Shown: one piece after another, positions 2,347 through 2,444 of the stretch
Numbering within the stretch: the stretch's first letter is position 1
Layout: every line of letters begins with the position of its first letter
Virus record (IMG/VR): IMGVR_UViG_3300025838_000019
Span: 102,640 to 166,639 of that record
Source of the DNA: a virus
Taxonomy: Duplodnaviria > Heunggongvirae > Uroviricota > Caudoviricetes
Reading direction: 5' to 3' (one strand)
DNA length: 64,000 nucleotides
Notes under the pieces: model-generated
Database searches by the model: none
Told to the model about the DNA's origin: nothing
The model's input: the letters and a program-made list of their open reading frames with translations, nothing else
Position numbers and translations under genes: made by a program

Positions 2347-2444
2347 AGGATCGGTTCAGCAAACCAAAACGTACGGTCATGGTGACCAATTTGACTTATA
2401 ATCAAACCTTGGGGGTTCAATTCCCTCTACAAAAAAACGATCCT
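2347..2444 (+). ncRNA. Stem-closed spacer module C with internal tRNA-like module
   Basis: AGGATCG (2347-2353) pairs with CGATCCT (2438-2444); interior has GTTCAGCAAACCAAAA motif, hairpin GGTCA-TGG-TGACC, anticodon-like arm TTTGA-CTTATAA-TCAAA and canonical T-arm GGGGGTTCAATTCCCTC. Confidence 0.45.

Follow-up and report, generated by a model that had tools for sequence, protein, structure and literature searches.

A framed tRNA-shaped RNA in a phage tRNA array, a candidate partner of a Ro60-like protein

What would a phage tRNA array keep a tRNA-shaped element for that does not look chargeable, and does the Ro60-like protein predicted to be encoded just downstream have a part in it? The question is raised by a 64,000-nucleotide stretch of a Caudoviricetes genome (IMG/VR record IMGVR_UViG_3300025838_000019, positions 102,640 to 166,639; the window, in what follows, is this whole stretch), in which positions 2347-2444, here called module C, lie between the genes for tRNA-Phe and tRNA-Leu. 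Ro60 and the Y RNAs form a long-studied RNA surveillance system, the bacterial and phage branches of which are known mostly from TROVE-annotated genes and YrlA. A first-pass annotation made from the DNA letters had read module C as a tRNA-like module in a long closing stem, the architecture of the bacterial YrlA Y RNAs, and had pointed to the gene at 4585-6024 for a protein partner. The analysis described here finds this Y-RNA reading right in kind and wrong in family. Module C belongs to a family of framed RNAs that is widespread, had not been defined before and is associated with DUF2828 Ro-like proteins, and a probability of roughly 60% can be given to the reading that it is one of the framed small RNAs acting as Y-RNA-like partners of the phage Ro60-like protein.

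The 98 nt of module C, and the bases directly after it, consist of a frame and the tRNA-like cargo within it:

2347-2444, + strand: module C, framed tRNA-like RNA, read from the sequence and matched at 2343-2449 by the covariance model R1 described below (39.0 bits, E 1.3e-6)
2347-2353, + strand: 5' strand of the frame stem, AGGAUCG, pairing with 2438-2444 and preceded by a U-rich stretch
2354-2362, + strand: frame motif GUU-CAGCAA, a candidate protein-recognition element
2371-2373, + strand: acceptor remnant GUA, pairing with UAC at 2428-2430 in the tRNA model alignment
2375-2387, + strand: miniature D arm GGUCA-UGG-UGACC (stem 2375-2379/2383-2387, loop 2380-2382)
2390-2406, + strand: anticodon-arm mimic UUUGA-CUUAUAA-UCAAA (stem 2390-2394/2402-2406, loop 2395-2401), with UAU at the anticodon position
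2407-2410, + strand: linker CCTT, read from the sequence
2411-2427, + strand: T arm GGGGG-UUCAAUU-CCCUC (stem 2411-2415/2423-2427, loop 2416-2422)
2438-2447, + strand: 3' strand of the frame stem, CGAUCCU (2438-2444), and the conserved GUU tail, after an A-rich linker at 2431-2437

The closing stem, hairpin, anticodon arm, linker and T arm are all where the first-pass annotation had placed them, and the tRNA-like part is indeed enclosed by a stem in which the two ends of the element pair; at 7 bp this stem is short rather than long. Two of its statements hold in part. There is no full acceptor stem, but a 3-bp remnant exists (GTA 2371-2373/TAC 2428-2430), and the D loop has only 3 nt, but the arm is a genuine miniature D arm, the loop GG of which is found in every orthologue. 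That module C is not a tRNA gene is borne out: the Rfam tRNA model (RF00005) scores 2371-2431 at 26.0 bits against a gathering score of 29 (E 0.045 in a 7-kb search and 0.00085 in a local search), assigning a 3-bp acceptor, a short D arm and full anticodon and T arms; ARAGORN makes no tRNA call there; and in place of a 7-bp acceptor with CCA there are three acceptor pairs (GUA/UAC) followed by AAAAAAA. Module C resembles a tRNA in how its D, anticodon and T arms are ordered, in retaining the GG of the D loop and the UUCRAWU of the T loop, on which the elbow depends, and in having a 7-nt anticodon loop with U33 and A37, whereas the acceptor of 3 pairs instead of 7, the missing CCA, the 3-nt D loop, the sub-threshold score and the enclosing frame set module C apart. 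Its minimum free energy structure (-24.1 kcal/mol) reproduces the closing stem and the three hairpins. The transcript likely covers ~2341-2451, from the 3' end of tRNA-Phe to the 5' end of tRNA-Leu.

Whether this shape is maintained can be judged from relatives. With the 4585-6024 protein as a handle, 80 related viral contigs were retrieved (individual loci carry L numbers below), and in 10 of them the same element lies between tRNA-Phe and tRNA-Leu(CAA), the window's exact position; a C-type module is present in the Phe-Leu spacer of 10/39 loci and absent from the others. Run unguided on the 11-copy alignment, RNAalifold arrives at four helices, those of the closing stem and of the D, anticodon and T arms. 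Across these orthologues 98.7% of the cells are paired, compared with 35-47% when the partners are slid by 1-3 columns as a control, and two-sided changes are seen in 13/21 pairs: compensatory changes affect 3/7 pairs of the frame stem (5/7 in the alignment of short modules described below), 4/4 counted pairs of the D stem and 4/5 pairs of the T stem. The D-loop UGG and the T loop are invariant in all 11, and the tRNA elbow is therefore preserved. The acceptor is what varies, with 2-4 contiguous pairs, or 6-7 with one mismatch in one subgroup; CCA follows the acceptor in no framed copy, and an A-rich run stands there instead. The scores with the tRNA model range from 63.7 bits (L010) through 36 (L017) to the 26 of the window, and ARAGORN calls the copies of L004 and L007 tRNA-Arg(tct) and that of L010 tRNA-Lys(ttt), while the same arrays also have canonical Arg-UCU and Lys-UUU genes at other places. 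The anticodon-like loops of the orthologues are CUUCUAA or CUUUUAA and that of the window is CUUAUAA, a difference at position 35 only. The first-pass annotation had left room for a decayed pseudogene with no conserved closing stem in relatives; the stem is kept there, with covariation. This comparative evidence argues that module C is a maintained tRNA-shaped RNA that would not be chargeable, and neither a decaying pseudogene nor a normal tRNA.

The frame is not peculiar to module C. Five copies of it, modules A-E, are found in the window, the other four being:

599-652, + strand: module A, short framed RNA (R1 63.0 bits, E 1.8e-12; RF01414 26.1 bits at 600-653)
1235-1296, + strand: module B, short framed RNA (R1 55.2 bits), with the anticodon-arm mimic UUAGA-CUUUUAA-UCUAA (1261-1277) as cargo
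4292-4385, + strand: module D, framed RNA (R1 37.1 bits, E 3.6e-6)
4340-4358, + strand: T-arm-like hairpin of module D, GUGAG-UUUCGAUUU-CUCAC, which recurs in D-type relatives
4396-4563, + strand: module E, long framed RNA with the stem UGGAUGA/UCAUCCA and the tail GUU, ending 22 nt before the start codon of 4585-6024

The hairpin of module D is the one that had been pointed out before, with GTGAG at 4340-4344, TTTCGATTT at 4345-4353 and CTCAC at 4354-4358. The common design is a U-rich stretch, a 7-bp stem, NUW and CAGCAA on the 5' side, and an A-rich stretch, the second stem strand and GUU on the 3' side of a variable cargo. Among 236 unique copies the consensus reads UUUU, A-G-G/A-A/U-U-N-N, N-U-W, CAGCAA and a G-poor stretch, and, beyond the cargo, an A-rich stretch, the complementary 7 nt and G-U-U-R-U-rich sequence. 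Detection of these copies demanded stem complementarity, so that a percentage of pairing would be circular for this set, but the flanks are conserved even though they lay outside the detection criteria, with frequencies in the GUU tail of 0.88 for G, 0.86 for T and 0.88 for T. When the search for stems required no more than TT before and GTT after them, 175/254 elements had CAGCAA as the hexamer ten bases in, and most of the remainder had a single-base variant of it, against an opposite-strand background of 45 matches. The stem sequence itself covaries freely between copies, and in the 80 related loci 278 framed modules lie on the + strand and 22 on the - strand. R1, a covariance model built from 29 short modules with the window and all cultured phages excluded, recovers modules A-D at 63, 55, 39 and 37 bits, and a search of both strands of the 64-kb window returns nothing beyond these four; module C is thus, at 39.0 bits, a framed CAGCAA RNA next to a DUF2828 gene. 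Readings of the frame or of the spacers as a kink-turn, a GNRA tetraloop, an integron attC site or a hammerhead were rejected, as the sequences on inspection depart from the consensus of each and no Rfam match was obtained. The frame is not described in the searchable, open-access papers.

The cargoes share the frame and differ in what they display. Short modules have 51-66 nt and mostly one hairpin inside, which has a 5-bp stem and a 7-nt loop in 62/102 (7.5% of shuffled cargoes) and, with an anticodon-type loop as well, in 41/102 (0.8% of shuffled cargoes); CUUGUAA, CUUUUAA and CUUCUAA are the commonest loops. In C-type modules the cargo is a tRNA body with its arms in the usual order. A third class strings together a T arm, a loop-closed acceptor stem and a D arm, which is the YrlA arrangement (L004 3123-3236 is an example), and scores 27-41 bits with the YrlA model RF02553, under its gathering score of 69. 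Modules of the D and E types exceed these in size, and 170-nt folds occur among the framed cargoes. One frame thus displays different tRNA parts, and tRNA mimicry takes at least three topologies within one family. As a separate observation, the loops of the framed cargoes are nearly all CUU-N-UAA, in which N is G, U, C or A, corresponding to the four U34-N35-U36 anticodons that read ANA/ANG codons. The U36-A37-A38 common to these loops is a known context for the t6A37 modification.

The protein partner is suggested by the gene that follows the frames:

4585-6024, + strand: gene for a predicted Ro60-like protein, DUF2828 with DUF7788/vWA, PHROG 850 (Pfam, PHROG, and an AlphaFold2 (AF2) model compared by Foldseek)

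Pfam finds DUF2828, DUF7788 and a weak vWA match in this protein and no match to TROVE even at E<=10, and the label of PHROG 850 is "RNA-binding protein". Neither the single sequence nor a 14-sequence profile led to Ro60 in sequence searches of the PDB; the comparison of folds alone did. A mixed alignment, used for a second round of homologue searching, brought back the same close clade without further diversity, which left the AF2 alignment shallow and the model moderate. The top nine PDB matches that Foldseek lists for this model are all Ro60 or Rsr, full-length and at E 2e-8 to 1e-5, and comprise Deinococcus Rsr, the Ro60 of Thermus phage phiLo, and human and Xenopus Ro60. The first-pass annotation's view of the neighbouring protein agrees with these nine matches, and a Ro60-like fold is what the model predicts. 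Others have come to this view independently: mycobacteriophage annotators have named a homologue 'Ro-like RNA binding protein', and HHpred leads from CKA15_055 of a Listeria phage to Rsr (PMC12282133). At least 702 sequenced phage records contain a homologue, among them records of Felix O1-like, KVP40-like, A511/P100-like and Campylobacter phages. Several authors have guessed that DUF2828 proteins have Y RNAs hidden among tRNAs, and the searchable, open-access literature defines no partner RNA for them.

The frames and this gene occur together well beyond the window. Modules D and E adjoin 4585-6024 and module C lies 2.1 kb upstream of it; in all 43 relatives with 6 kb of upstream sequence at least one frame precedes the gene (median four), with a median distance of 31 nt from the end of the last frame to the start codon. 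Frames are also found near the homologue in 11/14 cultured phage lineages that carry it, sharing the motif YUUACAGCAA in an element that runs from (A)AG to CUGU(U). They lie within 3 kb and on the strand of the gene in Synechococcus phage BUCT-ZZ01, E. coli phage wV8, Mycobacterium phage Appletree2, Listeria phage LP-048, Campylobacter phage NCTC12673, Staphylococcus phage S-CoN_Ph4, Enterococcus phage EA1, Bacillus phage PJN02, Ralstonia phage RSP15 and Aeromonas phage LAh_6, and 3-6 kb upstream of it, within a tRNA array, in Vibrio phage KVP40. Within the same 3 kb, no tRNA gene is annotated in Appletree2, LAh_6, EA1 or PJN02, and one is in S-CoN_Ph4. The tRNA region of T4 contains no frames.

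Is module C then a YrlA RNA, as first proposed? YrlA (RF02553; PMC4201824) is a noncoding RNA beside a Ro60-family gene, where the phage modules have the gene for a protein of predicted Ro60-like fold, and it likewise has 5' and 3' ends that pair, a short conserved motif near the 5' end, interior tRNA mimicry with T and D arms, and several different RNAs per genome; the permuted T, closed acceptor and D cargo of the phage relatives sits in the very frame of module C. Yet RF02553 gives no match at 2347-2444 at E<=10 in 7-kb, 2.4-kb or 131-nt searches, and the motif that defines YrlA, GNCGAAN0-1G (PMC4201824), is missing. In the 5' region of module C, AGGAUCG-GUU-CAGCAAACC, CAGCAA stands in place of GNCGAA. 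The topology differs too: module C has the order D, anticodon, T of a tRNA, opens at the acceptor and keeps its anticodon arm intact, whereas YrlA is permuted to T, closed acceptor, D and opens at the anticodon stem. The protein partner proposed here is DUF2828/DUF7788 without a TROVE match, and the RNAs are embedded in tRNA arrays. Membership of the YrlA family is thus to be given up, and module C is a sister architecture to the permuted, YrlA-like cargoes within one framed family. A parallel in phages is the Ro60 of Thermus phage phiLo with Yrl1 and Yrl2 (PMC12135203; PDB 9KOP, 9L5Y), where a phage-encoded Ro60 fold has at least two stem-closed RNAs just upstream. This Ro60 is among the closest solved structures to the 4585-6024 model (E 3e-8, TM 0.53-0.57), at an identity of 14-16%. 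The Yrls of phiLo were chosen by a CGAA motif and a stem-bulge-stem shape, and the passages on them describe neither a tRNA array nor a tRNA-order cargo.

If module C is a Y-RNA-like partner of the Ro60-like protein, a plausible course can be outlined. RNase P and 3' processing of tRNA-Phe, which ends at 2340, and of tRNA-Leu, which starts at 2452, would free the RNA. Its frame (stem, CAGCAA and CUGUU tail) could then dock on the Ro-like ring in the way that the terminal bulged helix of a Y RNA docks on Ro60, leaving the tRNA-shaped cargo as effector, which might recruit a factor that reads tRNA elbows or anticodon loops, such as a repair or decay enzyme. Alternatively, the cargo may serve as bait for such a factor, a host anticodon nuclease for example. 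Given the CUUNUAA loops, bait against anticodon nucleases is an attractive notion, though a speculative one. Either role would likely amount to tRNA/RNA surveillance or counter-defence during infection.

Several observations weigh against a Y-RNA-like partnership. The protein model is moderately confident (mean predicted local distance difference test score, pLDDT, 68.9; template modelling, TM, scores to Ro60 0.43-0.57), and module C is linked to the protein by gene neighbourhood only. In 3/14 lineages, represented by Stenotrophomonas phage DLP_6, Pectobacterium phage CBB and Pseudomonas phage Milchi, the 3 kb around the gene showed no frame. In Listeria phage CKA15, the noncoding region reported to be transcribed most highly (26,236-26,727) lies ~0.65 kb upstream of the three frames (25,256-25,595) and leaves them uncovered. 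G-U pairs, which were sought in the frame stems, are not found there (181 stems are perfect and 4 have one mismatch), so that the case for pairing in RNA, as opposed to DNA, is made from strand asymmetry and context in place of wobble pairs. Module C is also no stabler than shuffled sequence (z = -1.14; 24/200 shuffles fold equally well), and because single-sequence thermodynamics is insignificant, the comparison with relatives carries the case.

Other explanations start from the same facts. A duplicated tRNA-Arg(UCU)-like gene might be rotting in the spacer, with the flanking inverted repeat there by accident, which would account for the sub-threshold score and the silence of ARAGORN, for an acceptor down to 3 bp and a D loop down to 3 nt, for relatives graded from 63.7 bits to 26, and for the canonical tRNA-Arg(UCU) elsewhere in each array. 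Decay would not, however, keep the D, anticodon, T and frame helices by compensatory changes (13/21 pairs; 98.7% paired), hold the D-loop GG and the T loop invariant, or place the element under motifs shared with some 240 other modules and recovered by an independently built model (R1, E 1.3e-6), and such a pseudogene is very improbable. The opposite idea, that the element functions as a tRNA (Ile-UAU in the window and Arg-UCU or Lys-UUU in its relatives), with the frame as a maturation signal and with CCA added after transcription, takes its appeal from the ARAGORN calls in L004, L007 and L010, the copies with 6-7 acceptor pairs and one mismatch, and from the lack of any other UAU anticodon in the window's array. 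It is hardly more credible, as the window copy has 3 acceptor pairs and a 3-nt D loop, 22/22 canonical tRNAs of the window encode CCA and the framed copies never do, anticodon position 35 varies at one locus despite canonical Arg-UCU and Lys-UUU genes, and the same frame encloses cargoes that are not tRNAs (bare anticodon arms, permuted tops, 170-nt folds).

The frames themselves could be cis-acting elements that process or stabilise the array transcripts, as nuclease entry sites or punctuation, independently of Ro and with incidental cargo. Their location between tRNAs, their U-rich flanks, the spacing of successive frames (~9-10 nt) and the existence of other stem-closed spacers of different sequence in the window all fit, and this is the least improbable of the alternatives, while still unlikely: frames also stand beside DUF2828 genes that have one annotated tRNA gene or none within 3 kb, the tRNA array of T4 does without them, and an invariant 6-nt single-stranded motif together with a covarying cargo exceeds what a cleavage site needs. 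Strictly Watson-Crick stems without G-U, the presence or absence of C-type modules in the Phe-Leu spacer (10/39 loci) and the modular cargo could instead point to the DNA level, to elements bounded by terminal inverted repeats, whether miniature mobile cassettes or recombination sites, that would carry tRNA-derived cargo from one spacer to another. There is little to recommend this, since sequence conservation would be expected of a recombinase site and these inverted repeats vary yet stay complementary; the motifs are strand-asymmetric, always on the transcribed strand (278 against 22); the three array genes scanned include no transposase or integrase; and the frame finds its match in an RNA class expressed in Dictyostelium.

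That RNA class deserves attention in its own right. Apart from tRNA, the short modules match a single Rfam family, RF01414, the Dictyostelium Class I RNA, which aligns end to end at 26.1 bits (window 600-653), 32.2 bits (L004 945-998) and 24.2 bits (L070 3427-3483) against a gathering score of 41.5; it gives no match to module C, because the cargo is too long for the model. Class I RNAs have been described as RNAs of 42-65 nt, typically ~60, that start with AAG and end with CUGU, with a 6-bp covarying end stem, the 11-nt motif CCUUACAGCAA directly after its 5' strand (U3, C6, C9, A10 and A11 nearly invariant), a variable interior and a DUSE promoter ~60 nt upstream, and they are reported to be absent outside Dictyostelia (PMC7919456). 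Curated sequences, for example GTTGACCTTACAGCAA...AAAAACTACCGTCAACTG, match the phage frame feature for feature. Shared are a single-stranded motif directly after the 5' strand (CCUUACAGCAA compared with YUUACAGCAA/NUWCAGCAA in phages), the A-rich stretch before the 3' strand, the CUGU end, the (A)AG start, the variable interior, the clustering of copies and, for the short class, a length of ~55-60 nt. Module C itself has the 7-bp end stem with GUU and the 3' end CCUGUU, and its counterpart of the 11-nt motif, CGGUUCAGCAA, agrees at C6, C9, A10 and A11 and has G for U3; module A (CUUGCAGCAA) and many relatives (UUACAGCAA) fit better. On the side of difference, module C is 98 nt long, lies in a bacterial-type tRNA operon and carries G, not U, three bases before CAGCAA, while Class I RNAs have their own promoter (DUSE) and an RRM protein, CIBP, as known direct binder.

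A covariance model from D. discoideum Class I RNAs alone (R2), which is dominated by a near-identical GUUGAC stem, places 9/10 of its matches in 196 kb on phage frames, at weak individual scores (16.8 bits or less, apart from the top match). Its top match, at window 31284-31362 (17.7 bits; AUUGACAUUACAACAA...GUCAACUA), has ACAACAA and not ACAGCAA, lies inside the open reading frame 31237-31896 and was set aside as probably due to chance. Plant and tardigrade papers mention DUF2828, which is therefore not confined to viruses, and one of the four proteins pulled down with Class I RNA, DDB_G0281243, has no known function (bioRxiv 10.1101/2020.04.05.026054). It is tempting, if tentative, to regard the CAGCAA-framed phage RNAs and the dictyostelid Class I RNAs as one class, the cognate partners of DUF2828/vWA Ro60-like proteins; the balance at present tilts against so broad a unification.

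The protein genes around the frames suggest a wider context. In the window, three of them interrupt the tRNA array, at 1401-1883, 3312-3929 and 4585-6024, the first two being:

1401-1883, + strand: PF04308 RNase H-like gene (Pfam match) inside the tRNA array, a recurring neighbour of the Ro-like gene
3312-3929, + strand: calcineurin-like phosphoesterase gene (Pfam and PHROG matches) inside the array, possibly encoding an RNA-end-healing enzyme

A PF04308 gene also directly follows the homologue in KVP40. Repair-type neighbours recur elsewhere, with RtcB in Listeria phages (L085), an RNA ligase in CBB, a kinase and a metallophosphoesterase in DLP_6 and a metallophosphatase in PJN02. This recurrence around the DUF2828 gene (loci L085, L091, L093, L090, L082 and the window) suggests a conserved RNA-repair or surveillance neighbourhood, which fits the published view of ROT/TROVE proteins in jumbo phages (PMC7824862). 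The single functional result comes from the Felixounavirus Bas63, in which gp130, a homologue encoded upstream of tRNA genes, counters the Ppl defence system (bioRxiv 10.1101/2024.10.10.617714).

Some loci of cultured phages hold features of their own. In KVP40 (L082), ACGACATTTTACAGCAATTTAATATGAGGAATAAACAATGTC at 5965-6010, directly upstream of the homologue, carries the frame motif, and a GACAT/ATGTC pairing there would enclose the ribosome-binding site and the start codon; through this element the Ro-like protein may regulate its own translation. The Synechococcus phage BUCT-ZZ01 (L081) has an unannotated permuted transfer-messenger RNA (tmRNA) at 1737-2137 (RF04321, 111.9 bits), ~4 kb upstream of the DUF2828 gene, and several tRNAs are unannotated in its record. 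An identification of the frames with the highly transcribed region of CKA15 was rejected, as 26,236-26,727 holds a different noncoding stretch of ~500 nt. In Listeria phage LP-048 the corresponding stretch (L085 2414-3040, for CKA15 ~26,236-26,727) follows a sigma-A-like promoter (TTGACA...TATAGT) and has a tRNA-like gene on one side and the frames on the other; Rfam does not match it, and its sequence is not that of a CAGCAA frame.

The polycistronic array that houses the five modules occupies the first 6.3 kb of the window, entirely on the + strand, and has 22 canonical tRNAs, 21 by ARAGORN and one more by Rfam (2622-2693), each with an encoded CCA end. The remainder of the window includes T4-like replication genes (family B DNA polymerase, UvsX, DnaB-like helicase and ribonucleotide reductase). 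A DNA-level search among sequenced phages found no close relative of the window, and many relatives are found in metagenomes, on contigs of up to ~180 kb. At gathering thresholds Rfam finds only tRNAs in the window, and at E<=10 no ribozyme, tmRNA or sRNA family accounts for the spacers. The tRNA that ARAGORN misses, 2622-2693, has the loop CTCTTAA (CUU, Lys), an Rfam score of 53.4 bits and CCA at 2694-2696. Another tRNA-like copy with a CCA end, at 782-868 (GGGGGCAGCAGTGGGCTGCGG-TTCTCC-CTTGCAA-GGAGAA...AAGGATTCGATTTCCTCGGCCTCCACCA), has a UGC (Ala) anticodon loop and a shortened D region and is called by neither ARAGORN nor Rfam; relatives have tRNA-Ala(tgc) between Pro and Met at this position, and ARAGORN calls the L004 copy, with its anticodon at position 30. 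A second family of stem-closed spacers, at 864-994 and 2526-2623, has arms of 19-20 nt, CCATATA(A/C)AAACATTCT ... AGA(G/A)TGTTTCTATATGG, starts within the CCA of the upstream tRNA and stops at the first bases of the downstream one, without the CAGCAA motif and without an Rfam match. Further stem-closed spacers lie at 134-260, 2698-2845 and ~2081-2254, with unrelated stems, namely an 18-bp perfect one, TATCATTTGTTTTGCTGA/TCAGCAAAACAAATGATA, and TTTTTGAGC/GCTCAAAAA and TTTGTAAG/CTTACAAA, the last read by eye.

For phage biology, the frame offers a searchable candidate partner RNA for DUF2828 proteins, with a motif that can be mutated and a cargo that can be exchanged, and it accounts for several unannotated spacers of phage tRNA arrays and for calls of "tRNA-OTHER" or pseudo-tRNA made there. 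If the phage and dictyostelid RNAs do form one class, Class I RNAs would belong to a second, widespread Ro/Y-RNA branch and would not have arisen within the dictyostelids in connection with multicellularity; DDB_G0281243 would be the obvious DUF2828 candidate; and the phage interiors, whether tRNA body, CUUNUAA anticodon arm or permuted top, could be baits or tethers in conflicts over tRNA cleavage and repair. The frame may in this way end the orphan status, as regards mechanism, that the Dictyostelium Class I RNAs have had since 2004.

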